Shown: positions 4,074 to 48,581 of the stretch, in pieces | Layout: each line of letters begins with the position of its first letter | How positions within the stretch are numbered: position 1 is the first letter of the stretch | Origin: Candidatus Latescibacterota bacterium | GTDB taxonomy: Bacteria > Latescibacterota > UBA2968 > UBA8231 | Reading direction: 5' to 3' | DNA: 64,000 nucleotides | Assembly: GCA_965206595.1 (NCBI GenBank) | Contig: OZ242214.1 | Coordinates: 1,394,986-1,458,985 of the forward strand | Notes under the pieces: generated by a model | The model's input: the letters and a program-made list of their open reading frames with translations, nothing else | Database searches by the model: none | What the model was told of the DNA's origin: nothing | Translations under genes and position numbers: made by a program

Positions 4074-6137
4074 CTAGAAGCTGACCATCAGACCGCCGTT
4101 GGTCGAGAAGCCGGGATCCTGGAATCCCCAGGGCATCTCGAAGGTCTGGTTGGTGAGGTTGTAGGGCTCGAGGAAGAGGGTCAGATCGTACCCGTCCCGG
4201 GTGCTGACTCCGTACTGGACCCGGGCGTTCACCAGGAAGTACCCGGGGAGGGGGTCGTCAGCGTCCGTGTTTGGATCATCCTTCCTGATGTCCGAGTAGA
4301 TGCCGCTGTAGGATTGGGCCGTGACCGTCGCCCGCAGGCCCTGGGCAAGGGTCAGGTGGACGCCGAGGCCGATGACGCTCTCAGGAACGAAGTTGATCTT
4401 GGCGCCGATCAGATCCTCATTCTCGTGCTCTTTCACCTCGGCGTTGGTGTAGGTGTAGTTGGCGAACCACTCCACCATGTCGCTAAGGCGGTGGGTGACC
4501 TCCAGTTCGGCGCCGTTGGTCGCGGTGTTGCCGGCGTTGATGTCCTGCGACTGGGGCGCGCCTTCTACCTCCACCTGCACGATCTGGTCCTCGAGGGCGA
4601 TGTTGAAGCCCCGCAGGCCGACCTGCAGACCCGCCATGGGCCGGTAGTTCACGCCCAGGTCGATGCTGGTGCCCGCCTCCGGCTTGATGTCCGGATTGGG
4701 CAGGTGGCCGCTGTCCGTGCTACCCAGGGGGACGGTGCCGCCCACCGACTTTTGGGAAGGGGCCTTGAAGCTGGTGCCGAAATTGGTGTACACGGCCAGC
4801 TCGTCGCTGTGGTTGTAGCGGGCCCCGGCGCTGTAGAGGAGCTTGTTCCAGGAGTTGCTCTCTTCTCCCGGAGGAGCGCCGCTCAACAGCTCGATGTCGT
4901 GGGCGATGCTCGTGAAGCGTGCCCCGGCCCGCAGGGTGAGGTTGTTCAGGCGGAACTCCTCCTGGGCGTAGAGGCCCAGGCCGGTGGCGGTGCCCTCGTT
5001 GTTGGTGTTCAGAACGCCCGACTCCGAGGTGTTCTTGTAAGAGGCGAGCTGGTAGTCGGCGCCCACGGTGAGCACGTCTGACTCGCGGGTGATGACGGAG
5101 ACGGAGAAATCGGCCGGCATCACCGACTGGTCGACGCCGTCCTCCGAGCGCAGGGCGAGGCTCTCGGGGATGACCACCCCAAGGGAATCGCGAGCGAAGT
5201 TGTCTTCCTCCCAGCGGCGCACGTAGTCGCGGTAGCCGACCTTTGCGCGGGCGGTGATCTTGTCGGAGACCGGGTGGATGTATCCGGCGTTCAGGGTGGT
5301 GTAGGTGTGGCCGAAGTCCCGGTTCGGGCGGCCGCCATCGCCGGTGTGCCAGGTGCGGTGGGCATAGAGGGAGACCCGCTGGCCGCTGTCGTTGAGGTAG
5401 TAGGTTCCCCGCATGTACATCTTGGTCTTCTCGTAGTTCGGGGAATCGTCCTCGAGCATGTTCAGCCAGGAGTTTCTATTGCCGTCCTCGTCGAAGGTGC
5501 CGTAATAGGTGTAGTCGGAGTCCTCGTGGTGCCCGCCGAAGAAGAGGTGCAGGTTGCCGGCTGCCCTCTGGTGGAAGAAACGGCCGCCGATCGTCTTGTA
5601 GGAACCGCCGTACACCGAGGCGCTGGTGCGGGTGTTCCTGACCCTCTCCCGGAGGATGAAGTTGGCCGTGCCCGCCAGGGGCGACTGGTTGCCGGCGAAG
5701 TCCATGGCGAGGTAGGTCGGATAGAGCACCGAAGCCGAACCGCGCTGGTCCTCTACCCGTTCGAATGCCCAGGGGTCGAGGCTCTGCAGATCGACGAAGG
5801 CGTCGATCGGCAGGCCGTCGAGCATGTAGCCCTTGTAGGTGTGCGCGAGGCCGCCGGAGGACCCCCAGTTGGCGTCGTTGCGGGACAGCACGTTGGCGAA
5901 GTTGCCCGGGCTGTAGGAGAGGATTTCGGCGAGGTTGCCGTTGCCCTGGACCAGGGAGCCGATCTCGTCGGAGGTGATGATGGAGATCTTCTGGGTCACG
6001 TTGCCCGGCGTCTGCGGCAGCTTGGAGCCGGTGACGATGACCTCCTCCATTTCGGTGATATCTTCCTCATGGCTGTCGGCAAAGGCCAGGCCGGCGCCGA
6101 GGCAGAGGAACAGCGGGATGTGAAGAAGTCGCTTCAT
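4074..6137 (-). CDS. TonB-dependent outer-membrane receptor
   Basis: 687 aa; signal peptide MKRLLHIPLFLCLGAGLAFA; plug-like N-terminal region (EEVIVTGSK...), long beta-barrel-like body, C-terminal aromatic residue (...GGLMVSF); GGGAGG RBS. Confidence 0.9.
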   Translation of the reverse strand: MKRLLHIPLFLCLGAGLAFADSHEEDITEMEEVIVTGSKLPQTPGNVTQKISIITSDEIGSLVQGNGNLAEILSYSPGNFANVLSRNDANWGSSGGLAHTYKGYMLDGLPIDAFVDLQSLDPWAFERVEDQRGSASVLYPTYLAMDFAGNQSPLAGTANFILRERVRNTRTSASVYGGSYKTIGGRFFHQRAAGNLHLFFGGHHEDSDYTYYGTFDEDGNRNSWLNMLEDDSPNYEKTKMYMRGTYYLNDSGQRVSLYAHRTWHTGDGGRPNRDFGHTYTTLNAGYIHPVSDKITARAKVGYRDYVRRWEEDNFARDSLGVVIPESLALRSEDGVDQSVMPADFSVSVITRESDVLTVGADYQLASYKNTSESGVLNTNNEGTATGLGLYAQEEFRLNNLTLRAGARFTSIAHDIELLSGAPPGEESNSWNKLLYSAGARYNHSDELAVYTNFGTSFKAPSQKSVGGTVPLGSTDSGHLPNPDIKPEAGTSIDLGVNYRPMAGLQVGLRGFNIALEDQIVQVEVEGAPQSQDINAGNTATNGAELEVTHRLSDMVEWFANYTYTNAEVKEHENEDLIGAKINFVPESVIGLGVHLTLAQGLRATVTAQSYSGIYSDIRKDDPNTDADDPLPGYFLVNARVQYGVSTRDGYDLTLFLEPYNLTNQTFEMPWGFQDPGFSTNGGLMVSF

Positions 6138-8848: not shown

Positions 8849-9493
8849 TCAGTTCGACCCGGCCCAGCGCACCCCCTGGGTCATCAGCGCCTGCATGGCC
8901 GGACGCTGGAAGGTGCCGGCGGTGTGCCCGAGGGCGGTGTAGAAGACCCGCCCCGCCTTGTACGGCTTGACCCAGGCCATCGGATGCGGCTTGTCGCTCC
9001 ACTCCGCCGTGGCGAGGATGCGGATGGCGGGATCCCAGGCCGACATGTAGATCTCGTCCTCGACCTCGAAGTCGGAGATGCCCCGGGTCACCGGGTGGGT
9101 GCCGTCCTCGATGTTCACGGTGAAAGTCAGGCCGGGAGGATGCCAGTTGGCGTGCCCGCCGAGGAGATCGACAGCGCGCGCCCCGACCCACCAGCCGGTG
9201 CCGTGGACTCCGACCAGGCCCTTGCCGCCGGCGACGAAATCGAACAGCCCGTCCTCCTGTTCCTGGGTGAGGTCGGGCTCCCGCAGCACGCCCCCGTCCG
9301 GCCCCTGGAAGGCGCGGGTGAACCCGGTTCCGAACACGCAGGCGTCGAACTCGCGCAGCGCCGCGGAAGCGAGGATGTCCTTGTCGCCGTCCAGTTGCGC
9401 TTCGAGGTCGCCGGCCGTATTAAGGAATCCGCAGATCACCTCGGCGCTCTGCCCGAAGCCGTGATTTTCGCCCGACAAAACCAGAACCTTCAT
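8849..9493 (-). CDS. ThuA-domain protein (class I glutamine amidotransferase-like fold)
   Basis: 214 aa; MKVLVLSGENHGF ... FYTALGHTAGTF; GGAGGG RBS 9 nt upstream of ATG. Confidence 0.8.
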   Translation of the reverse strand: MKVLVLSGENHGFGQSAEVICGFLNTAGDLEAQLDGDKDILASAALREFDACVFGTGFTRAFQGPDGGVLREPDLTQEQEDGLFDFVAGGKGLVGVHGTGWWVGARAVDLLGGHANWHPPGLTFTVNIEDGTHPVTRGISDFEVEDEIYMSAWDPAIRILATAEWSDKPHPMAWVKPYKAGRVFYTALGHTAGTFQRPAMQALMTQGVRWAGSN

Positions 9494-9608
9494 TCGCAGT
9501 CCCTCCGTTGTGGTGGAATAGCATCCCGATATGGTTGCTCAGCAGGCCAAGGCCTGCCGCAGCCCAGATGGACTTCAGCAACGGGCTGATAACCCGGGGA
9601 AGATAGAT

Positions 9609-10550
9609 ATGGAGCTCGTGAGATATCCAGACAGCCGCATCGAAGTGCTCGACGACCGCTTCGCCCGCTACAAGCTAGCCAACGCCGCCCTCGAGATGCT
9701 GTGGACCGGGGGACGCTGGCTCGAGGGGCCGGTCTGGTTCGGCGACGGTCGCTACCTGCTGTTCAGCGACATCCCCAACGACCGCATCCTCAAGTGGGAG
9801 GAGGAGACCGGGGAGGTGTCCGTTTTCCGCAAGCCCTCCAACAACAGCAACGGCAACACCCGGGACCGTCAGGGCCGCCTGGTCAGCTGCGAGCACCGCA
9901 CCCGCCGGGTCACCCGCACCGGGCACGACGGCACGATCACCGTGCTCATGGACCGCTTCGAGGGGCGGCGGCTGAACGCACCGAACGATATCGTGGTCAA
10001 GTCGGATGGATCGATCTGGTTCACCGACCCGGGGTACGGCATCCTGATGGATTACGAGGGAGGCCGGGCCCCCTTCGAGAACGCCGCCAACGTCTACCGC
10101 CTCGACCAGGAAACCGGAGAGGCGACGGTGGCTGCAGGGGACTTCCGCCGCCCGAACGGCATCTGCTTCAGCCCCGACGAGTCGCTGCTCTACATCGTCG
10201 ACACCGGGCGCTCCGACGGCCCCGAGCACCCGACCCACATCCGCGTCTTCGACGTCGAGGGGGAGCGCCTTGCCAACGGCCGCGTCTTCGCCGACATGGA
10301 GCCGGGCGCCTCGGACGGCATCCGCACGGACCTGGACGGCAACCTGTGGTCGGGGGCCTGTTGGGGGGGAGAGGGGTACGACGGCGTCCACTGCTTCGCC
10401 CCCGACGGCGCCCTGATCGGCAAGGTCCACCTGCCGGCTCCCTGCTCAAACCTCTGCTTCGGCGGCCGCAGGAAGAACCGGCTGTTCATGACCTGCTCGC
10501 AGTCGCTGTTCTCCGTCTACCTCGAGACGAACGGAGCGCAGACTCCGTAG
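9609..10550 (+). CDS. SMP-30/gluconolactonase/LRE-like lactonase
   Basis: Beta-propeller lactonase features (EGPVWFGDGRYLLFSDIPNDRI, NAPNDIVVKSDGSIWFTDP, RPNGICFSPDE). Start set at ATG 9609 (MELVRYPDS), because the ORF track start 9531 would overlap the divergent ThuA gene. Confidence 0.85.
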   Translation: MELVRYPDSRIEVLDDRFARYKLANAALEMLWTGGRWLEGPVWFGDGRYLLFSDIPNDRILKWEEETGEVSVFRKPSNNSNGNTRDRQGRLVSCEHRTRRVTRTGHDGTITVLMDRFEGRRLNAPNDIVVKSDGSIWFTDPGYGILMDYEGGRAPFENAANVYRLDQETGEATVAAGDFRRPNGICFSPDESLLYIVDTGRSDGPEHPTHIRVFDVEGERLANGRVFADMEPGASDGIRTDLDGNLWSGACWGGEGYDGVHCFAPDGALIGKVHLPAPCSNLCFGGRRKNRLFMTCSQSLFSVYLETNGAQTP

Positions 10551-10609
10551 CTCTCCGCCCGGATCCGGGCTCCCCGGTCAACCTGGGACAGCCGCCGGGC
10601 GAGGAGGGC

Positions 10610-12043
10610 TCACTCGATCCAGAAGGAATACAGGCTCGCCCGGTGCAGGTAGAACTTCAGCTGCACCGGTTTTTCGAACACGAGGTCGTGCGGATTCTTC
10701 CAGGCGACCCTGGCGCGGGTCGAGTCGCCGGTGAACGGAGGCGGGCGCTCGGCCGGCACCCAGAAACCGGGGATCGGCCGCCCCGACTCGGCGTCGAGGA
10801 TCTCGGTGTAGATCTCCCCCCAACGCGCGTCGGCGTTGATGTAGACCTCCTCCCCCTTGAGCTCGAACGGCCGCGTCGTGACGACGCCGTTGTCGCTGCC
10901 CTCGAGCGACACGAAGCCGTCGGGCCGCAGCCTGGCCAGCGACAGGGCCCCGCTGTCGGTGAAGTGGCGGGGATCGACCCCCATGCGATGCAGCTCGTCC
11001 AGCTTGTCGCGGCGCTCGTAGTTCTCCAGGGACGTACCCCACCTGAGGCCGTTGTAGTAGCACCAGATCTCGCCGTCGTCGCGGACGACCGGCTGTCCGG
11101 CCATCAGCAGCTGCCCGGTATCGTAGGTTTCCCCGTCGTATGGCTCGACCCCGAGGAAGACGGCGCGGTCGGCGACCCGCTCCCAGTGATGGAGGTCGCG
11201 GGAGACGCTGAGCTCCACCTGGTTGATGCGGTCGAAGTTGGTTGCCGGCGGAGGGTTGGCTCCGAAGGGGTTGAACAGCACCGGGAAGCCGACGTAGAGC
11301 CCCTGGTAGGGGAAGACGGCCATGTTGTAGACCTCGGCGATGTAGTCCTCGCCGTCGACCCCGGCAGGGGTCACGTAGGCCGGATCCTCGACGATTTTGC
11401 GCACCCGCTGCCGGCAGTTCTCGTGGTCGATTTCGTCGGAGTGGAAGATCAGCTTCGGCTCGCTGAACTCCTGAAAGTCGGGGCCGCTCGTCGAAAGGAA
11501 GATCGAGCGCCCCCATTCCGTTCCCTGCTTGACCATCGCCAGGTACTGGCCGCTGTAGGGGTCCCGGGTAAACTGCGACTCGTCGCTGCTGGGGATCGCC
11601 GGGGCGCCGGTCGGCGTCCACCGGAAGCCGTCGGGCGACAGCGCCGGCTGCCGGCCCCAGGCCGCAAGCAGACCCTTGTAGCGCCGCTGCGGATCGGGAT
11701 CTGCGTCGTCCCGCAGGAGGTGGTAGGCCCGCTCGCTGCGGTCGCCGCCCGGGTCAGCGGCGAGGTTGTTCTGCCGCGACCCTTCCCACTCGAACAGGCC
11801 GAGGTCGGGCAAGTCCCAGTGCTCGCCGTCCGCGGAGGTCGCGTAGCGGAGGTGGTCGCCGAAGTACCACCACTCCCATACCTGTTTGCCGGGGTTCCAC
11901 TGCGGCGAGTTGCGGCTCTGCACCCCGCCCGGTATCAGCGGGCCGCACTTCTTCGGCTGGTGCAGGCGCCGGGTTATGCGCTCGCTCGAATGGATGGCGC
12001 CGTCGTCGAGAAAGAGCTGGTGGAACCGCTTCGCCTGGAGCAT
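10610..12043 (-). CDS. Hypothetical cytoplasmic beta-propeller-like protein with Asp-box (BNR-like) motifs; possible glycoside hydrolase
   Basis: 477 aa, no signal peptide; S-x-D-x-G-x-x-W-like motifs (SADGEHWDL, SRDLHHWE); GAGGAG RBS 8 nt upstream of ATG. Confidence 0.6.
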   Translation of the reverse strand: MLQAKRFHQLFLDDGAIHSSERITRRLHQPKKCGPLIPGGVQSRNSPQWNPGKQVWEWWYFGDHLRYATSADGEHWDLPDLGLFEWEGSRQNNLAADPGGDRSERAYHLLRDDADPDPQRRYKGLLAAWGRQPALSPDGFRWTPTGAPAIPSSDESQFTRDPYSGQYLAMVKQGTEWGRSIFLSTSGPDFQEFSEPKLIFHSDEIDHENCRQRVRKIVEDPAYVTPAGVDGEDYIAEVYNMAVFPYQGLYVGFPVLFNPFGANPPPATNFDRINQVELSVSRDLHHWERVADRAVFLGVEPYDGETYDTGQLLMAGQPVVRDDGEIWCYYNGLRWGTSLENYERRDKLDELHRMGVDPRHFTDSGALSLARLRPDGFVSLEGSDNGVVTTRPFELKGEEVYINADARWGEIYTEILDAESGRPIPGFWVPAERPPPFTGDSTRARVAWKNPHDLVFEKPVQLKFYLHRASLYSFWIE

Positions 12044-12709: not shown

Positions 12710-12869
12710 GGCCCGAACCTATCATCCACGCAAGCGCACCGCCAGGGGTGCCCCCCGCGGGTTCGAGCAGGCAAGCGGGTTCAAACTGGGACTCCACTTT
12801 CTCCCGGTAAAACGGATCCGGACTATTCACGAAAGGGCTCTCCATGTCCGTCGATAGACCCAGCCGCCC

Positions 12870-13884
12870 TAGTGTCCTGTCGTATAATTAACTGTACAAA
12901 CAATTGAAGGTGCCGTAGGTTTCTCTTATCCCCCTTCTGAAAGGAGAGACCTATGGTGACGGGGCGTCCATTACCGCCGTTAGAGCTGAGTCCGTCGGAC
13001 CGGGAACGATTGGAATCGATGGCCAAATCCCGGAGCCTTTCCCACGGGTTGGTGCGGCGAGCCGAGATTAGTCTGCTGGCCGCAGAAGGCGGGCCCAATG
13101 AAGCCGTCGCCGCCGCCGTGGGTGTGACGCGTGCTACGGCTTTCTCGAAAACGGGCAAGTGGCGCCGGCGCTTTCTCGAAAACGGGCTCCAGGGCTTGCA
13201 TATGGTTTGCAGCCCCATCGACACAAGCACTTCACGCTTTCCACCGATCCTTTCTTTGTCGACAAAGTACGGGATATCGTCGGCTTATACCTGAATCCCC
13301 CCGAGCACGCCCTGGTGCTGTGCGTCGACGAGAAGAGCCGGATCCAGGCGTTGGAACGAAGTCAGCCCATGCTGCCCCTGGGACTGGGATACGTGGAAGG
13401 GATTACGCACGATTACAAGCGCCATGGCACCACCACCCTGTTTGCCGCCTTGGACGTAGCCACCGGGGAAGTGATGACCCAGTGCAAGCCCCGTCATCGT
13501 CACCAGGAGTTCCTTCAGTTCCTGCGCCACATCGAGGCCCACGTCCCCGCTGACCTCGATATTCATCTCGTCGTCGACAACTACGCCACGCATAAGCATG
13601 CCAAGGTCAAGCGATGGTTGGCACGGCGTCCCCGATTTCACGTTCACTACACCCCCACCTATGCTTCGTGGCTCAATCAGGTGGAGATCTGGTTCAATAT
13701 CCTTACCCGCCAGGCGGTTCGCCGGGACTCGTTCCGCAAGGTGTCGGAGCTCATCGAGCGCATCGAACGCTACACGGCCAAATGGAACGCCAACGCACAC
13801 CCTTTCGTGTGGACGGCTACGGCCGATTCCATCCTCGCGAAAATCAAGAGACTTTGCGAACGAATCTCTGCGACACAACACTAG
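12870..13884 (+). mobile_element. IS630/Tc1-mariner-family insertion sequence, copy 1 (degenerate)
   Basis: Ends shared with copy 2 begin right after a TA on each side (TA|GTGTCCTGTCG ... CGACACAACAC|TA); imperfect 11-bp terminal inverted repeats; about 157 bp shorter than copy 2. Confidence 0.8.
12953..13884 (+). pseudogene. IS630-family DDE transposase, copy 1, inactivated by ~170-bp internal deletion plus a 12-15-bp duplication
   Basis: Split into ORFs 12953..13294 and 13159..13884; relative to copy 2 the segment encoding [16 protein letters not shown]...HRIWRTYGL is missing and CTTTCTCGAAAACGG is duplicated; otherwise near-identical at DNA level. Confidence 0.8.
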
Positions 13885-23758: not shown

Positions 23759-24808
23759 GTGGATTCGCTGACCCAGGCGGCCCTCGGCGCCGCGGTCGGG
23801 TACGGGGTCCTGGGGCGGCAGGCCGGCCGCAAGGCCCTGGTATGGGGCGCGGTTCTCGGCACCCTTCCCGACCTCGACGTGTTCGTGCCGCTCGGGGACG
23901 ACGTCGCCGACTTCACCCACCATCGCGGCCCCACCCACTCGCTGCTCCTGCACGCCGCCGCAACACCAGTTATCGCCTGGGTAATGGGACGGGTGCAGCC
24001 GTCGATCCTGCCGTTCCGCCTCCGCCGCTGGCTGCTGACCTTTCTCTGCCTGACGACGCACGCCCTGCTCGACGGCTTCACCGCGTACAGCACGCAGCTG
24101 CTCTGGCCCCTGCCGGTGGCGCCGACCGCCTGGTCTACCCTGTTCATCATCGATCCCCTCTACAGCCTGCCGCTGTTCGCAGGGGTGATCGCTGCGATTG
24201 TGTCGACGGGAGAGAGAGCGGCGCGCTGGAACCGCCTGGGTCTGCTGCTGAGCACCGCCTACCTCCTCCTCAGCATAGCGGCCAAACTGCACGTCGACGG
24301 GGCCGTGCGCGAAACCCTGCGGGGGGATCCCGGGGCGGGATCCTTCATCTCGGGTGCCACACCGTTCAACATCCTGCTGTGGCGCGTCGTGGCGATGGAC
24401 AGCGACGGTTATCGGATCGGCTACTACTCTCTCCTCGACGACGCGGACCGCGTCCGCTTCACCCGCTACCCGGACGACCGGGAACTTCTCGAAGCCATCG
24501 CCGAGGAGGAGCCGGTAGCCGACCTGAAGCGGGTGACCAAGGGATTCTACGGGGTGCGCCTCGTCGGCAGCGAAATCCAGGTCGCCGACCTGCGCATGGG
24601 GTTCGAGCCGGCGTACGTGTTCCGCTTCGTGGTCGGGGAGCTACGGGAGGGTCAGGTAAGGCCGGTGCCGAACCGCCGCGCCGGGGGCGGCCCCGACGTC
24701 ATGACCCTGGGCTGGATCTGGCGGCGGATATGGGACGAGTCCCTGTCGCCTCCCCATCCGGGGGAGGGGCGGTCATCCAGCCTCTTCACTACGGGACGCA
24801 AAGGGTAA
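23759..24808 (+). CDS. Membrane-bound metal-dependent hydrolase (YdjM/DUF457-like)
   Basis: N-terminus MDSLTQAALGAAVGYG, PDLD and HRGPTHSLL motifs, several hydrophobic helices. Confidence 0.7.
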   Translation: MDSLTQAALGAAVGYGVLGRQAGRKALVWGAVLGTLPDLDVFVPLGDDVADFTHHRGPTHSLLLHAAATPVIAWVMGRVQPSILPFRLRRWLLTFLCLTTHALLDGFTAYSTQLLWPLPVAPTAWSTLFIIDPLYSLPLFAGVIAAIVSTGERAARWNRLGLLLSTAYLLLSIAAKLHVDGAVRETLRGDPGAGSFISGATPFNILLWRVVAMDSDGYRIGYYSLLDDADRVRFTRYPDDRELLEAIAEEEPVADLKRVTKGFYGVRLVGSEIQVADLRMGFEPAYVFRFVVGELREGQVRPVPNRRAGGGPDVMTLGWIWRRIWDESLSPPHPGEGRSSSLFTTGRKG

Positions 24809-24892
24809 GGATGCGGCGCCAAGCCGTGGCGGGGCGTACCTGGCGTGGGCGAAAATCTTCACACTCCCGTGCGCTGACCAACCCAGTCATAG

Positions 24893-25985
24893 AGCAAGTC
24901 CCCGGAATACAACGGACGCGAGCACGGGTGGTCCGCCCATTACGACGGCGAGTGGGTCTCGGCCGTACTGGCGGTGTTTCTGCGCGTGGTGGGCGGCTGG
25001 TATCGACGTCAGGCGCAGGCCATGGGCCATGACCGCGCGCGGTGGGGCTCGGTGACCTTCGTCCAGCGGTTCGGTTCCTCCCTGAACCTCAATCCCCACA
25101 TGCACGTGCTCATGCTCGACGGGGTCTACGTCGATGGGGAGGACGCTCCGGTTTTCGTAGCGGCCCCGCCGTTGTCGGACCAAGCCGTGCAGCAGATCGT
25201 GGAGACGAGTGCGCGCCGCATCATCCGCTTGTGCACGAAACGCGGCCTGTTGGACGACACCGCCGCCGATCCGCTCGCCGACGAGGAGCCGGTGCTGGCG
25301 GCTCTCACCGCGGCTTCGGTGCGAGGGCTCACCGCCACACCGGGGCCCGCGCCGGCCAACGCCTGCGCCGGGTCCTGAAAGATCCGGCCACCGGGGTGCG
25401 TACGGCGCCCTTGTGCTTTGCTTCGCGCGGCTTTTCGCTGCATGCGGCAACGCGGATCGCAGGCCCTGACCGGCGCGGGCTCGAACGCTTGTGCCGCTAC
25501 GTGGCCCGGCCGCCCTGGCGGGAGGGCGTCTGCGCTTTGTCGATGCCGACCCTCTTTCCTTCGCGCTCAAAACGCCGTGGTCGGATGGGACCCGCCATCT
25601 CCTGCTGTCTCCGATGGACCTGCTGGAGAAGCTGGCGGCTCTGGTTCCCCCGCCCCGGTTTCATCTCCTGCGCTACCACGGGGTCCTGGCGCCCCGGGCC
25701 CGGGCCCGCGAGCGCATCGTGCCGGCCAAGCCGGTTGCCGAGTCGTCGTCGGCGGACGGCTCGGCGAGCGTTGCGTCCTGCGGCCATCGACTGCGGTGGG
25801 CGACCCTGCTGGCGCGGGTGTTTTCCTCCGACCTCAGCGAATGCGCGGCATGCGGCGGTGGCCTGAGAATCATCGCCGCCCTGACCGATCCGGCCTCGAT
25901 CCGGACCTATCCGGAGGGGGTAGGGCTGCCGGCGATGCCCCCGCCGAGGGCCCCGCCTGAGCCGCTGTTCGAGTTCGCCGCCTGA
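24893..25985 (+). pseudogene. IS91-family (HUH, rolling-circle) transposase remnant: 5'-truncated and frameshifted
   Basis: Pieces in three frames: HUH-like NLNPHMHVLMLDGVY (ORF 24974..25378), LCRYVARPPW region (frame of 25042..25866), C-terminal FHLLRYHGVLAP plus Cys-rich CGHRLRW...CAACGG (ORF 25491..25985). Open frame begins only at 24893, directly after the ydjM-like gene, so the N-terminal ~100 aa are missing. Confidence 0.65.
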
Positions 25986-26289
25986 CCTGCCTTCTCGACC
26001 CGTCGCCGTCGCCGGGCGTACGGCGGGGGGTGCCCTCAACGGTCCCTCAGGCCCCGGATTTTGATCCGGATACGGGCCTACAGGCAACCAAACTGTACTG
26101 CGAGCTCGGCCGAAGGACTGGCAAACGATCCTCAGGGAGCTGCCTGACCCTAGCGGTGCGCTCAGCGCCTTGACCCGAGAGTCCAAAAAAGGTGCCTCAT
26201 TTTACCTATACTCAACGACGATGATGGCGCTCATAGCTCACCTCCATCTTTAAGAGACTGTTTCTGCATCGACCTTCTAATCCATTCGA

Positions 26290-26315
26290 CAACCTTGATT
26301 CTCTCGTAAAAACCC
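26290..26315. repeat. IS1182 terminal inverted repeat, outer left copy
   Basis: CAACCTTGATTCTCTCGTAAAAACCC; 20-nt core identical to the reverse complement of 28460-28479. Confidence 0.7.
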
Positions 26316-26445
26316 TACGTCCCCAGAATGCCCGGTTTTTTATACAACATATAGTGTATGCCTTGTCTTAGTTGGCCAATATATAGTGGCGCTCTAGTGT
26401 GCTGAATCGCTGAACATCCTGAAAATGGGGTTAATACGAAGGAGT

Positions 26446-26472
26446 CAACCTTGACTCCCTCGTAACAACCCC
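26446..26472. repeat. IS1182 IR-like repeat, inner left copy (imperfect)
   Basis: CAACCTTGACTCCCTCGTAACAACCCC; 3 mismatches to the core; 165 bp from the transposase stop. Confidence 0.6.
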
Positions 26473-26636
26473 GTTTTCAAGGCAGAGAATTTTTCTTGAA
26501 ACTTTAGTTTCACCAACATGAAAAGAATCGGGAATGCGCCGCTATTCAAGCAGCTTCAGCGCTCTATCGTCCGATGGCCTCGAATCGGGCTTATAAGGCC
26601 TTTTTGCGGCACCGAAAAGGACCTCCGTTCCCTTTT

Positions 26637-28382
26637 TCAGCCCATCGCCGGAGCTATGGCTTCGGGTTTGGGCGTAAGCGCCCGCAGCATTCTCTTGAAA
26701 TTGCAGGCCAGGGCTTTCAGGTAGACGGCCAGCTCCACGCGCCAGCGTCCGCGCACACGCAGGGCGCCCAGCCCGTGTCTTCGTTTCAGTTCCGAGACCG
26801 TGGCCTCGATGCCGGCGCGAATGCGATAGCGCTCCTTGAAGGCGCCGCTGGCGATGGCGCGGCGGCGGCGTTCGAGGTTGACGGCTTTCAGGTCCACGGT
26901 TACGGCGTAGCCGTCCCCGTCCTGGTTCGGCCGCACCGGGCAGAGGGGAAACAGGGCGCAGGTCTGGCAGCTTCGGCGCTCGAAGGTCAGCACCACGTGG
27001 TGCTTCTTCTTCTCATACGACGTTTGCTCTCTAGCCAGGTATCCGGCCGGGCAGATGGCCGGATCCCGGAGACGGGCCTCGACGAGGAAGTCGGCTTCGG
27101 TCACCGTATCGGGGCGCTCCTCGACGTCGACCTGCGGGCCTTTGACCGGGCTGACCAACTCGGTGCCCAGGCGCTCGGCGTTGACGGCGTTGTCGCCGGA
27201 GCCGAAGGCGGTGTCGGCGACCAGCTCGTCGGGTCGTTGCCCGCGCTCTTCGAGGGCCTCCAGCACCGGCATCGTCGCGTGCTCGTCACTGGCGCAGGCA
27301 TCGGTCACCGCTACGTGGGTGATCCTGTTCACGGTGTCGGTCTGGTCGTCGTCGGTCTGGTCGTCGTCGGTCTGGTCGTCGTCAGTCTGGTCGTCGTCAG
27401 TCTCGACGCAGGTCTCGGCGATCTGCACCTCATACCCCTTGCCCTTGCGGCCGTGGTAGGTGGCCTCGGCATCATAGGGGCTTTGCAGCGAGTCGCTGCC
27501 GACCTTCTCAGGCGCCTTCAGCACCACCGGCACGCCGCCTTCGCCGGCGTCGTCGTCCTCGGTCGAGGGGCGCTGCTTGTCCACGATCACCTCACACTGC
27601 TCCCACAGCAGGCGCTGCAGCAGCGCGTAGGATGCCAGGCCCTCCGCCGCCGTGCCCGCAAACAGCTGATGGAGACGGTAGAGGTCGCGGGCGCACACCG
27701 GCAGCCGCCTCTTGCCCGTGCCGGAGGGCGCGTCCTGGTAGGCCGTGGCGCTGCCGTCCTCCTTCAGGTAGCGCTCGCGCAGGCGCTTCGACACCCGCCC
27801 GTACAGGCGCGGATGCTCCGCCGCCAGGGTTTTCAGAAAGTGACGGAGGGTCTCACACAACAGCCCCAGACGCGACAACACCGCGATGTTGCTGAGCACG
27901 TGGGTGGAGTCCAGACGCTGCCGGGTGACCTTCGTACCCAACGCTTGGAGAATGCCATCCGTGGTCGCCTCGAACGCCTGCCGGCCGCGGTCATGGGCCA
28001 GCAAGCGAGCGCGGAAGTTGTGCAGCGTCAGGACGTTGTTAGTCCTCGTCTTCTGCGCCAGGTGGGCCTCCTCCGGGGTCAGCTCCAGGGCGTGCTGCCA
28101 CAGCAGGCTGAACTCCAGCTGCTCCAGCGCCTCGGCGTCGGTCAGAGCGAACATCTCCTTGAGCAGAAGCACGCCCAAGACCGTCGCCACCGGCTGGTTG
28201 GGACGACCGTTGTCGTCGCAATACAAGAGCGCGAACTGTTCTTCGTCGATCAGCGGCAAGGCGTGCGCGCGAAAGCTCTCGGCCCAGCTCGCCTGCAGGC
28301 GCCGCTGCTTGGACGGAGGCACCAGGTTGCGGCTCTCGAACAGGGTGCGTTGCGAATCCTTCGTACGAAACATCAGCCCCAT
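26637..28382 (-). CDS. IS1182-family DDE transposase
   Basis: 581 aa; N-terminal MGLMFRTKDSQRTLFESRNLVPP, C-terminal Cys-rich region (CQTCALFPLCP), acidic linker with (DDDQT)x4. Confidence 0.8.
   Translation of the reverse strand: MGLMFRTKDSQRTLFESRNLVPPSKQRRLQASWAESFRAHALPLIDEEQFALLYCDDNGRPNQPVATVLGVLLLKEMFALTDAEALEQLEFSLLWQHALELTPEEAHLAQKTRTNNVLTLHNFRARLLAHDRGRQAFEATTDGILQALGTKVTRQRLDSTHVLSNIAVLSRLGLLCETLRHFLKTLAAEHPRLYGRVSKRLRERYLKEDGSATAYQDAPSGTGKRRLPVCARDLYRLHQLFAGTAAEGLASYALLQRLLWEQCEVIVDKQRPSTEDDDAGEGGVPVVLKAPEKVGSDSLQSPYDAEATYHGRKGKGYEVQIAETCVETDDDQTDDDQTDDDQTDDDQTDTVNRITHVAVTDACASDEHATMPVLEALEERGQRPDELVADTAFGSGDNAVNAERLGTELVSPVKGPQVDVEERPDTVTEADFLVEARLRDPAICPAGYLAREQTSYEKKKHHVVLTFERRSCQTCALFPLCPVRPNQDGDGYAVTVDLKAVNLERRRRAIASGAFKERYRIRAGIEATVSELKRRHGLGALRVRGRWRVELAVYLKALACNFKRMLRALTPKPEAIAPAMG
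27336..27404. repeat. 15-bp tandem repeat (about 4.5 units, GTCGGTCTGGTCGTC) inside the IS1182 transposase gene
   Basis: Three perfect units at 27336-27380, then a G->A variant and a partial unit; encodes the DDDQT repeat on the minus strand. Confidence 0.85.
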
Positions 28383-28459
28383 CCAGTAAAGAGGAAGTGT
28401 GTGACGGATTGGTATACACCAATATACCAGGAACCCTTGATTATCAGGGCTGTGAGAGA

Positions 28460-28486
28460 GGGGTTTTTACGAGAGAATCACTCTTG
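28460..28486. repeat. IS1182 terminal inverted repeat, right (transposase-proximal) end
   Basis: GGGGTTTTTACGAGAGAATCACTCTTG. Confidence 0.7.
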
Positions 28487-28560
28487 TTAAAAAGTGCGTA
28501 AAGTGGAGGCTACACCCTTTCCTGCTGTGGGGATGTTGGCAGGTACCCGAAGACCCCAAT

Positions 28561-30142
28561 TTGCTCGCGCAAGTCGGTGATGTTCGCATAACTGTCGAGG
28601 TTTTGCAGACCTATGCTGCAAAGGCGCCTACCAACATGGAAGAATTCCAGGTTGAATACCGGGATCTGCTGCAAACTTTAGTGGATCGGGAGGTGCTGCT
28701 GCTGGAAGCCCAAATCCGGGGAATGGCTGAAGACTCCTTGGCCCAGTCACGACTCCGTGAGGATGAAACAGAGCGCCTCGTGCAAGAGATGCTTTCGCCA
28801 AGTTACCGCCAGGCTTTCGGTTACTCCTGAAGAGGTGAGAAGGGAATTCGAAACTGGTGGCTGGGATGACCAGGTCCAGTGCCTCCAGATCTTCGTGTCC
28901 GATTCGGCCAGAGTAGGAATGCTGTTGGACAAGTTGCAGGAGGGGGCCGACTTCGAGGAATTGGGCAGGCGCTGGGCGGAAGACCGCCTTTTCAAAATCC
29001 CGACCGGTTCGGTGCAGAGGTTTTCTTACTCTGCCAAGGACGGACCCCGAAAAGTCGTGGAGGCGGTTTTCGATTTGTCCGCTGGAGAGGTGACTGGGGC
29101 CATCGAGATCGACGGCGGATGGGTCATTGTCAAGGTTTTGGAAAGGCGTCGGGTTCCGTTCGAGGAGGTGAGGGAGAAGGTTCAAAACTGGTTGACCCGT
29201 AGAAAAAAGGAGGCTTTGCGAGACGTCTATTTCATTTCGCTGCGAGAGAGCTTCGAATTGGCTTTGAACCAGGAAGGAATTGACCTGGTACTGCGGATGC
29301 TGAAAGAGGGGGTCCGCGGCCATGGGCTGGCCGCGGAAGAGCGCATGGTGCCGGTGTACACCTACAGGGGAGGAGCGCTAACGGTAGAAGCGGCCCTTTC
29401 GGCGATAAAACAAGGACCTCGAAGTTCGGCCGACCTTTCCGAAGGCCTTGTGATAGAGAAGTTGAGAGAGGTTCTCAAGCGCAGGCTGGTACTGGCTGAC
29501 GCCCGGTCGCGAGGTCTGGATGAGACCGAGGAATTCAGGAAGTGGAGACGGGGGAAGAAGGCGGACCTGATGATCGGCATGTTGCGCTCCCGGGTCCTCG
29601 ATGAAGAACTAACGGTCTCGGAAGAAGAAATCCGGGCCCGTTACGAGGAGCGCAAGGAGCATTTTCGTCAGCCTGCAAGTGCTCGGGTTCTCGACCTCCT
29701 CGTCAAGGATCCCGGAGAAGCGAGAGCATTACGGCGGGAGATCGAAGCCGGCGGGGACATGCGCAGTCTCATACGTCGCCACAGCATCCGGGAAAATTCC
29801 GAGGAGGGGGTCCTGGAGGTTTACGAAGTACAGTCCATGATTTTTGGAGAAGAATGGCTCAACGCGGTCATGAATGCCCCGGTGAACGAACTACGGGGAC
29901 CTGTCGAGAGCAAAGGGGGATTCTCCCTGTTCAAGGTGCTCGAGAGAAGACCCCGCGACTACTTCCAGCTCGAAAACGAACGCGTGCGCATGACCCTGAT
30001 CAGGGAGATCAGGGAAATCAAGGAGCGGGTACTGTTCAATGAGTTCCTGGAGAGCTTGCTGCGCAAGCATTCCGACCTGATCCATGTTTCAGAGGAGAAT
30101 CTCGAGCGCATGGAGGCTGAGAGCAGAACTGAACTACAATAG
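28561..30142 (+). pseudogene. Parvulin-type peptidyl-prolyl isomerase (SurA/PrsA-like), frameshifted and apparently 5'-truncated by the IS1182 insertion
   Basis: ORF 28561..28830 (SurA-N-like ITVEVLQTYAAKAPTNMEEFQVEYRDLLQTLVDREVL) continues in ORF 28757..30142 after a shift near 28800 (parvulin-like VQCLQIFVSD...GADFEELGRRWAED...GAIEIDGGWVIVKV). No signal peptide; the reading frame stays open back into the IS right end. Confidence 0.6.
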
Positions 30143-30565
30143 GTTGATTGGGCAACCACCTAGAGGGAGGATCTGTCCTGACCTCCGGCCCTCAAAAGGC
30201 GGAGATCGAAGCGTTCTTCCGCAGCTTCTACTCTCGCCCGACTCGCCGAGGCCCCGGTTCTGCTGAAGGTTCGCGAGCCGCTCGAAGGGGAGGTAGCCCT
30301 TACCGGCCCCCCGCCGGATCGATGGCGATCAAGGCTGTCGAGCACCTGGCATCGGCCCGGTCCCAACAGGACCGACCGCGCCCGTCGCCCCCGTGCCCTG
30401 CTACTTCTCACGCTCTTGGATAAAGGGGTGGTCGGACTTCCGGCGGACGGTCACCCAGGAAAAGGCGAAAAAGCTGTTTCCGGCCCTCAGGTACCTGCTC
30501 GGCTTCTCGTCCAATCCCAATCGTCAGGGGCTGATCCTGCCCGCGGCGGATTCGGCGCCGATTTT

Positions 30566-47172: not shown

Positions 47173-47409
47173 GAGCAGAAAGATAGAACCGGGGACGGCC
47201 TATCCAAATAGTGTCAGGGGCAGGGATGCGAGGGCAAGCAGGGCGATGGCCAGGACCCGGAGGTAGCATCCCTTCGCGACTGTCGGCGTGCCATCAGGCG
47301 GTCGACACCTTACCATGATCGCCGCCGGTCCATGCCGCTACAGGCTAGTCCAAAACAGGGCAGGAATGAAACAACTTGGAATGCGGGGGAAACAGTGGTA
47401 CCGTTATGC

Positions 47410-48581
47410 TAGTGTCCTGTCGTATAATTAACTGTACAAACAATTGAAGGTGCCGTAGGTTTCTCTTATCCCCTTTCTGAAAGGAGAGACCTATGGTGAC
47501 GGGGCGTCCATTACCGCCGTTAGAGCTGAGTCCGTCGGACCGGGAACGATTGGAATCGATGGCCAAATCCCGGAGCCTTTCCCACGGGTTGGTGCGGCGA
47601 GCCGAGATTAGTCTGCTGGCCGCAGAAGGCTGGCCCAATGAAGCCGTCGCCGCCGCCGTGGGTGTGACGCGTGCTACGGTCGGCAAGTGGCGCCGGCGCT
47701 TTCTCGAAAACGGGCTCCCGGGCTTGCATGATGAGCTGCGCTCAGGGGCGCCACGATCGAGTACGGATGAACAGGTAGCCGAGGTGGTATACAAGACCCT
47801 GAAGACCAAGCCCAAAGACGAAACACAGTGGTCGGTGCGCTCCATGGGCGAAGAAACCGGCTTGACCAAGGACGCGGTTCATCGCATTTGGCGCACGTAT
47901 GGTTTGCAGCCCCATCGACACAAGCACTTCACGCTTTCCACCGATCCTTTCTTTGTCGACAAAGTACGGGATATCGTCGGCTTGTACCTGAATCCCCCCG
48001 AGCACGCCCTGGTGCTGTGCGTCGACGAGAAGAGCCGGATCCAGGCGTTGGAACGAAGTCAGCCCATGCTGCCCCTGGGACTGGGATACGTGGAAGGGAT
48101 TACGCACGATTACAAGCGCCATGGCACCACCACCCTGTTTGCCGCCTTGGACGTAGCCACCGGGGAAGTGATGACCCAGTGCAAGCCCCGTCATCGTCAC
48201 CAGGAGTTCCTTCAGTTCCTGCGCCACATCGAGGCCCACGTCCCCGCTGACCTCGATATTCATCTCGTCGTCGACAACTACGCCACGCATAAGCATGCCA
48301 AGGTCAAGCGATGGTTGGCACGGCGTCCCCGATTTCACGTTCACTACACCCCCACCTATGCTTCGTGGCTCAATCAGGTGGAGATCTGGTTCAATATCCT
48401 TACCCGCCAGGCGGTTCGCCGGGACTCGTTCCGCAAGGTGTCGGAGCTCATCGAGCGCATCGAACGCTACACGGCCAAATGGAACGCCAACGCACACCCT
48501 TTCGTGTGGACGGCTACGGCCGATTCCATCCTCGCGAAAATCAAGAGACTTTGCGAACGAATCTCTGCGACACAACACTAG
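47410..48581 (+). mobile_element. IS630/Tc1-mariner-family insertion sequence, copy 2 (intact)
   Basis: About 1.17 kb; TA at both junctions; same imperfect 11-bp terminal inverted repeats as copy 1; single intact transposase ORF. Confidence 0.85.
47493..48581 (+). CDS. IS630-family DDE transposase (intact, 362 aa)
   Basis: N-terminal helix-turn-helix-like region, DDE-type core ([15 protein letters not shown] ... [19 protein letters not shown] ... [12 protein letters not shown]); RBS GAAAGGAGAG. Confidence 0.9.

Follow-up and report, generated by a model that had tools for sequence, protein, structure and literature searches.

Insertion sequences (IS) such as IS91, IS801, and IS1294 carry an HUH rolling-circle transposase and have distinct oriIS and terIS ends; they make no target duplication, and failure to terminate at terIS (1–10%) leads to one-ended transposition, the read-through figures for IS91 and IS1294 being 1–10% and 1–14%, respectively (PMC13181058). 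ISCR clade Ia elements, for example the ISCR27-type element beside rmtC on pECL3-NDM-1 (NZ_KC887917.1), are found on proteobacterial plasmids with resistance cargo and encode a transposase with Zn_Tnp_IS91 and Y2_Tnp domains in a single open reading frame (ORF). ISCR1, in complex class 1 integrons, is a rolling-circle element fixed beside a conserved neighbor and is thought to mobilize DNA on its terIS side, but its terIS has been lost and it is found only fused to the 3' conserved segment (3'-CS). Helitrons, the eukaryotic HUH (Rep) rolling-circle elements, also pick up fragments of neighboring genes by reading through their termination signal; their protein architecture (Rep plus helicase) is unrelated and their hosts are eukaryotic, and they serve here only as an analogy. 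Here we describe a relative of these elements in a 64,000-nucleotide stretch of a Candidatus Latescibacterota genome (assembly GCA_965206595.1, contig OZ242214.1, positions 1,394,986–1,458,985), hereafter called the window. Positions ~24809/24853–26212 of the window are very probably a dead, non-autonomous ISCR-like rolling-circle IS of the IS91 family in the broad sense. It lies downstream of a ydjM-like gene, with its terIS side facing ydjM and its oriIS end at 26212. As a copy it is ordinary, a new member of an already known type; its position beside ydjM is of more interest because fragments of that gene are attached to intact copies of the same element at other loci.

A six-frame translation of 24780–26100 gave a protein-like reading that steps through three frames, and the stitched 364-amino acid product matched Pfam Y2_Tnp (PF04986) over profile positions 1–179 of 183 (E = 3.5e-28; 99.3 bits, cut-off 20.9). 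The three pieces matched consecutive parts of this profile, one each, and tblastn of the intact 476-amino acid relative P0001 placed them in frames 2, 1, and 3. An earlier note, made from the sequence alone, had described a three-frame HUH transposase of the IS91/HUH family abutting a ydjM-like gene and adjacent to an IS1182 element, and these assignments were all confirmed, with the family taken in its broad sense and the neighbor as an IS1182-like element. A search of a large protein collection returned 3074 homologues, the best of which were 476-amino acid Zn_Tnp_IS91 plus Y2_Tnp proteins of up to 92% identity. Against NCBIfam, the stitched pseudogene matched ISCR_clade_Ia with E = 1.6e-59 (201.8 bits, profile positions 148–482 of 509) and transpos_IS91 with E = 2e-13 (50.1 bits). 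The curated cut-offs are 925 bits for NF052416 (ISCR clade Ia) and 125 bits for NF033538 (the IS91 equivalog); P0001 scored 329.8 and 97.1 bits, respectively, below both. As a positive control, the clade Ia plasmid element L087 (numbers of this form denote the loci fetched for comparison) passed the NF052416 cut-off with 1108.4 bits; a bona fide ISCR clade Ia protein also fell below the NF033538 cut-off, at 95.5 bits. The L087 transposase and P0001 are 40% identical over 465 residues. Judged by sequence, the transposase has more in common with ISCR than with IS91 proper, but the intact relative is not a member of ISCR clade Ia because its 329.8 bits compare with a cut-off of 925.

The likeness to clade Ia extends beyond domain order: the motifs NLNxHxHxLxLDGVY, LExLCRYxxRPA, and ALVPPPRxHLxRxHGVxAP are common to both, both have an oriIS-type end of the form ...AAAAA(A)GG..(T)T..CCTATAC about 230–255 bp after the stop codon, and both lack terminal inverted repeats. 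The host, however, is an uncultured Candidatus Latescibacterota lineage rather than a proteobacterial plasmid, the element of this family has no resistance cargo, and the window copy is a pseudogene. With respect to IS91 proper, the differences are a single tyrosine evident in the RY motif (aligned with ISCR), the absence of orf121, and the lack of a clear CTTG/GTTC target beside oriIS, where the ends are instead followed by TT and variable bases. The closest loci all come from metagenome-assembled genomes of Candidatus Latescibacterota, and the family comprises dozens of copies; the 5.9-Mb chromosome OZ244619.1 contributes about 20 of the loci, and another genome about 13.

The right end of the element, ...AAAAAAGGTGCCTCATTTTACCTATACT, was placed at about 26212, 227 bp after the transposase stop codon. 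Four copies were initially found to end at one base with differing flanks; homology with three copies in L001 stops there, and the flanks beyond it are unrelated. In the fetched loci taken together we counted 46 instances of the motif AAAAAAGGTGCCTCATTTTACCTATAC, flanked in 42 different ways and ending ...CCTCATTTT(A/T)CCTATAC-TT; in 40 of the 42 distinct ends, TT and then variable bases follow the terminus, which can be read as C followed by TTN. The oriIS of ISCR27 is GCGGTTGAACTTCCTATACC, 236 bp after the stop codon (PMC8894482), and that of ISCR1 is GTGGTTTATACTTCCTATACCC (PMC13023784); the window-type terminus matches the core of these, and the end of L087, GCCAAAAAGGGCGGTTGAACTTCCTATACC, resembles it as well. 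Because homology stops at a common base and that base adjoins an oriIS-like sequence, the element ends at 26212, 122 bp beyond the end at 26090 given in the earlier note, and not at the hairpin discussed below. The left leader has no similarity to the inverted oriIS terminus; the two ends are thus different and there are no terminal inverted repeats. No flanking direct repeats were evident by eye at L001, L014, and L086, a check that is limited by the ragged left ends. To a precision of one or two bases, these alignments locate the oriIS terminus of an uncharacterized ISCR-like family that is abundant in Candidatus Latescibacterota.

The terminal oriIS motif also occurs in tandem, as five CCTATAC units in L062 (~4700–4730) and three units of TTATTTTACCTATACGT in L036 (~1690–1725), which may be slippage products or the result of repeated initiation and termination at the end. 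Beyond the end, the minus strand of 26213–26250 reads as a Shine-Dalgarno-like GGAGGTG and then ATG AGC GCC ATC ATC GTC GTT G, running into oriIS; possibly the insertion interrupted a gene that begins here. The predicted MSAIIVV... is not the beginning of the MetE-like or periplasmic-binding-protein gene found after ydjM in relatives. L076 and the window have the first 11 bp of this right flank in common.

The left side behaves very differently from the right. The leader core, from ~24853 (AATCTTCACACTCC...), is common to all full-length copies examined, but 24809–24852 is found only in some. Left ends were aligned at 13 loci, plus L084–L086, and in L001 coordinates their boundaries fall at 5947–5955 (L086, L014), 5888–5895 (L004/L025, L034, L033), ~5866–5872 (L021, L003), 5851 (L008/L010/L084), 5843 (L026), 5788 (L002), and 5666 (L001): among full copies they form a nested series, with the ydjM–element junction as in the window. 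Working outward, L001 carries the last 61 codons of ydjM (window 24624–24808) on the terIS side of an intact copy, and its positions 5665–5850 translate as SFVVGELRDGQVRAVPNRQ...WIWRRIWDESLPPPHPGEERSSSLFTTGRKG and a stop, an in-frame YdjM tail; L002, another intact copy, has the last 20 ydjM codons in frame at the same side. Both fragments are preceded by unrelated sequence, the additional DNA is confined to the terIS side, and it is joined to the element exactly as in the window. The attached tail is native YdjM, because its FRFxVGE...W.W.RIWD stretch is conserved in YdjM homologues down to about 50% identity, in other phyla. Orthology of L001 itself to the window locus is excluded by an unrelated upstream gene, a different right flank, and the absence of any other match to the window. 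A called upstream gene in L001 (4860–5894, with a faint FG-GAP match) enters the captured ydjM fragment in another frame, and its annotated C-terminus is thus an artefact of the insertion; annotators should be aware that ORF callers fuse upstream genes to captured ydjM in this way.

These ydjM tags fit read-through of terIS, i.e., one-ended transposition, from a donor adjacent to ydjM. The element would have moved as IS91 and ISCR elements are taken to do, by rolling-circle replication from oriIS back through the transposase gene to terIS; at times termination at terIS would have failed and replication would have run on into ydjM, and daughter copies would thereby have been tagged with 20 or 61 of its codons. 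We put forward, tentatively and with a probability of only about 0.4, that the ydjM-adjacent insertion is a donor-type locus of an ISCR-like family that actively shuffles Latescibacterota genes, its daughters being intact and ydjM-tagged. The tagged copies would be a trace, left in nature, of the failure to stop at terIS by which ISCR elements are held to acquire neighboring genes, those for antibiotic resistance among them; if the donor reading is right, they would provide natural, non-clinical evidence of gene capture of the ISCR type, which is experimentally unshown for these elements. Two differences from ISCR1 are that the leader is kept here and that the fragments of the neighboring gene occur on dispersed daughter copies.

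Several points weigh against the overall account of the element given here. Transposition has not been shown experimentally for any ISCR element (PMC6218425), nor has it for the Latescibacterota family, whose footprint is in sequence only. L002 and L026 have a common upstream flank and, not being independent, count as one event. The clearly independent ydjM-tagged loci number only two; a metagenome-wide exact scan with the junction 20-mer AAGGGTAAGGATGCGGCGCC found four loci, but these had no further similarity and were chance matches. The left boundaries, spread from 5666 to 5955, are too ragged for a terIS sequence or a site of cleavage to be defined. At its end the window copy has CCTATACT followed by CAAC, where 40 of the 42 distinct ends read CCTATACTT (the orthologous end in L076 is CCTATACTT followed by CCGACGACGATG), so that this end may be slightly damaged. 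Finally, a single old capture followed by erosion of left ends would look much like repeated read-through, and it may be what took place. A search for a terIS palindrome in 24809–24941 gave folding no better than that of shuffled sequences (z = +0.8 and -0.6 for the two strands).

The ydjM fragments could also have arisen if the many copies of the element had recombined, undergone deletion, or taken part in segmental duplication, for instance in a rearrangement by which a ydjM–element junction reached a new site. Copies with rearrangements or internal deletions abound in these genomes, every relative has a rearranged locus to the right of ydjM, the common flank of L002 and L026 is accompanied by an indel difference at the junction, and a 2.5-kb module is duplicated between L001 and L076 at 98% identity. 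Such processes, however, do not readily account for extra DNA being exclusively on the terIS side while the oriIS end falls at precisely the same base in 42 distinct contexts, nor for nested left boundaries that always keep the native ydjM–element junction intact; read-through at 1–10% is, moreover, documented behavior of the IS91 family (PMC13181058). We consider this explanation unlikely, though it is the likeliest of the rival readings considered here.

The donor reading, if true, would also explain two further features of the family. Many Latescibacterota loci are fragments that keep the oriIS end, and among them are oriIS-only stubs of 590 bp, at L001 1977–2564 and 10691–11279, L041 2003–2569, L044 4009–4597 and 7157–7745, L061 4046–4640, and L076 14449–15043, some of these loci being duplicates of one another. 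All the stubs begin at one internal point, corresponding to window 25622–25626 (...CTGCTG/GAGAAGC), a common boundary that points either to a pseudo-termination site within the element or to a family of mini-elements. The second feature is the 2.5-kb oriIS-linked module present at two sites, L001 1–2565 and L076 12471–15031, which comprises an element fragment, a 212-amino acid gene, a GFO_IDH_MocA gene, and a 590-bp oriIS stub. Its two copies are 98% identical with different right flanks; it could be cargo mobilized from oriIS, or the two copies could represent two strains in one metagenome sample.

The age of the ydjM-adjacent insertion can be judged from three relatives in which the GFO_IDH_MocA–ydjM synteny is kept (L076, L077/L078, and L079). 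In L076, ydjM is followed by the leader and by 52 bp from the start of the transposase gene, then by inserted DNA and scattered element fragments, and its right part retains the last 590 bp of the element with the 11 bp of right flank mentioned above. The interrupting DNA (9253–11650) carries a gene with a faint DUF2971 match and a HicA/HicB toxin-antitoxin pair. In L077/L078, 11 bp (GGATCCGCGCC) come after ydjM and then, across a GCGCC microhomology, no more than the terminal 42 bp of the element; this arrangement (L077 9051–9102, also in L078) resembles a near-complete, microhomology-mediated excision. L079 has the site without the element, with fragments 2.5 kb away. Since the same insertion is found in different states of decay, it is older than the divergence of at least three of these lineages, which are 88–91% identical in nucleotide sequence. 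To the right of the element, no relative is syntenic with the window, and all four related genomes compared differ from it beyond ydjM on that side.

The earlier note had correctly drawn attention to a GC-rich hairpin past the transposase stop, exactly at 26050–26078, but it is not the terminal hairpin that was proposed, the structure being 134 bp inside the element end. As DNA it folds with a free energy of -12.1 kcal/mol (z = -3.2 on both strands; 2 of 200 shuffles were as good). It is kept in all copies of the window-like subfamily only; copies of the diverged subfamily (the L002/L017 type) have lost the outer stem and keep only an inner stem of 4–5 bp, in a shifted register. When base pairs were counted in 21 diverse right ends, 74.6% of cells in the hairpin were paired, against 73.5% in shuffles, so there is no excess of covariation. 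On 21 right ends, RNAalifold did not recover the hairpin, nor was there any convincing conserved structure in the last 90 bp. A transcription terminator was rejected because a terminator scan found no site there and there is no T-tract. Most likely, the hairpin is a lineage-specific feature of the 3' non-coding region and not a terminal structure. That it is nonetheless a working, non-terminal part of the oriIS region, for instance in transposase binding or strand initiation, seems improbable: its stability on both strands and the persistence of the inner stem across both subfamilies would be in keeping with such a role, as would the two subterminal palindromes in the oriIS regions of IS91 and IS801 (PMC13181058), but 82 bp suffice for oriIS of IS91, where the palindromes are near the end (PMC13181058), and the hairpin is 134–162 bp away. 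Its covariation is equal to that of shuffles, 29 of 500 of which pair as well, RNAalifold does not find it, and the L077 stub retains only the last 42 bp of the element, although that stub is not necessarily functional.

Alignment with L001 allowed the damage to the window copy to be reconstructed. Window 24941–26212 corresponds to L001 6388–7655 (94.6% identity by blastn), and the sequence to its left, including the leader, is equally well conserved; what the window lacks is the 404 bp equivalent to L001 5984–6387, both sides of which are kept. This internal deletion took 17 bp of leader, the ATG, and codons 1–129, including the zinc-binding domain (Zn_Tnp_IS91, PF14319) that is present in intact relatives such as P0001, and it left a junction with 1 nt (T) of microhomology. 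The loss of 129 residues replaces the earlier estimate of ~100. Internal deletions of a like kind are found in relatives L004, L025, L026, and L034, but the one in the window is specific to its lineage; the orthologous L076 still has the start of the transposase gene. The open frame does begin at 24893, after a TAG at 24890–24892, as previously noted, but this is not a protein start: 24893–24940 is 5' leader, in frame by chance, and transposase homology begins only at 24941 (joint tblastn E-value for the three P0001 fragments, 4e-161), upstream of the HUH motif HMHVL at 25100–25114. The deletion and two frameshifts together leave the window copy unable to make transposase. With an almost consensus oriIS end retained, however, transposase from another copy could in principle start there. 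A suitable annotation would be a pseudogene from about 24809/24853 to 26212.

It counts against the copy being as decayed as it appears that both small indels could be long-read assembly errors. The -1 indel sits in a G/C run (CCGGCCGGCCC), and the related contigs are long-read metagenome assemblies, judging from their names. The +2 indel, however, is a dinucleotide duplication, which is atypical of homopolymer error, and the gene would be dead without either indel, as neither its start codon nor its zinc-binding domain survives the 404-bp deletion. Assembly or sequencing error as the source of both frameshifts is thus doubtful, a little more so than a working role for the hairpin. Programmed frameshifting was rejected on three grounds: there is a single ORF in intact relatives, compared with these the frame changes come from a +2 and a -1 indel, and the start codon is deleted.

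The least tenable alternative, with scarcely any probability left to it, is the original description of a simple 5'-truncated remnant that abuts ydjM at 24809 and ends at the hairpin; the late open frame, the absent N-terminal domain, a thermodynamically real hairpin, and the subterminal palindromes that IS91-family ends do have (PMC13181058) speak for it, but 24853–24941 is homologous to the pre-ATG leader of at least 11 full-length copies, so that the 5' end is kept and the loss is internal, homology in every copy continues beyond the hairpin to the common terminus, and the hairpin shows neither covariation nor, in the diverged subfamily, its outer stem. Table 1 lists the features of the copy and its immediate neighbors.

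Table 1. Coordinates, in window positions, of the ISCR-like copy, its parts, and the features on either side.
Feature	Position	Strand	Evidence
ydjM-like gene, 349 amino acids; left neighbor	23759–24808	+	Pfam PF04307, E = 8.6e-32
5' (terIS-side) leader, retained	24809–24941	+	blastn of 24624–24941 with L001 5666–5983, 94.7%; left-end alignments
Junction of internal 404-bp deletion	24941–24942	+	blastn with L001; tblastn
Transposase fragment A, contains HUH motif NLNPHMHVLMLDGVY	24941–25339	+	P0001 residues 130–262 (frame 2), 95% identity; Y2_Tnp positions 1–73
+2 insertion (AC duplicated), first frameshift	25339–25340	+	blastn alignment with L001
Transposase fragment B, LERLCRYVARP with single conserved Tyr	25339–25512	+	P0001 residues 262–319 (frame 1), 93% identity
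-1 deletion (G lost from CCGGCCGGCCC), second frameshift	25512–25513	+	blastn alignment with L001
Transposase fragment C plus TGA stop (25983–25985)	25512–25985	+	P0001 residues 320–476 (25512–25982, frame 3), 90% identity; Y2_Tnp positions 118–179
oriIS-side non-coding region, 227 bp, stop codon to right terminus	25986–26212	+	L001 homology ends at 26212
GC-rich bulged hairpin GGCCCCGGATTTTGATCCGGATACGGGCC, internal	26050–26078		Fold free energy -12.1, z = -3.2
Terminal block TTGACC..GAGTCCAAAAAAGGTGCCTCATTTTACCTATACT, oriIS-type end, conserved	26170–26212	+	46 occurrences, 42 distinct flanks
IS1182-like element, adjacent	26289–28487	-	NCBIfam transpos_IS1182, Pfam DDE domains, inverted repeats

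Within the 64-kb window, neither blastn nor tblastn found a second copy of the element; a weak 60-bp match at 1552–1610 had no tblastn support. Rfam gave no matches at E ≤ 1 over 24000–29000.

The adjacent IS1182-like element has an uninterrupted 581-amino acid transposase ORF at 26637–28382 on the minus strand. Its best match was to IS1182 (NF033551), with E = 1.2e-51 and 176 bits, below the cut-off of 270, whereas the Pfam models DDE_Tnp_1_6 and DUF772 passed their cut-offs; DDE_Tnp_1 was also matched. Imperfect inverted repeats of 27 nt (89%) lie at 26289–26315 and 28461–28487, and no target duplication was seen at the element. Its ORF includes a 15-bp tandem repeat of 4–5 units (27321–27410) that encodes DDQTD repeats, and its AT-rich left end holds a second inverted-repeat-like copy (26446–26471) and a 29-nt palindrome (26420–26479). 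The segment that follows, 28488–30200, has a lower G+C content (about 52–58%, compared with about 68% around it) and contains a 461-amino acid gene with PPIC-type rotamase domains (28757–30142). None of the three related ydjM loci shows synteny with this segment, which may thus be acquired DNA.

The lack of synteny to the right of the element would suit a spot prone to rearrangement, but the label of a mobile-element hotspot, suggested for 24.8–28.6 kb, is only loosely justified: at a distance from this locus, two copies of an IS630-type element are also present in the window, and the genome is simply IS-rich. These two copies, at 12869–13884 and 47409–48581, are 99.9% identical over 684 bp and 95.5% over a further 333 bp, and each has a helix-turn-helix ORF and a DDE_3 ORF (PF13358, 1.8e-24). 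A 70-bp stretch related to this IS630-type element is also present in L076.

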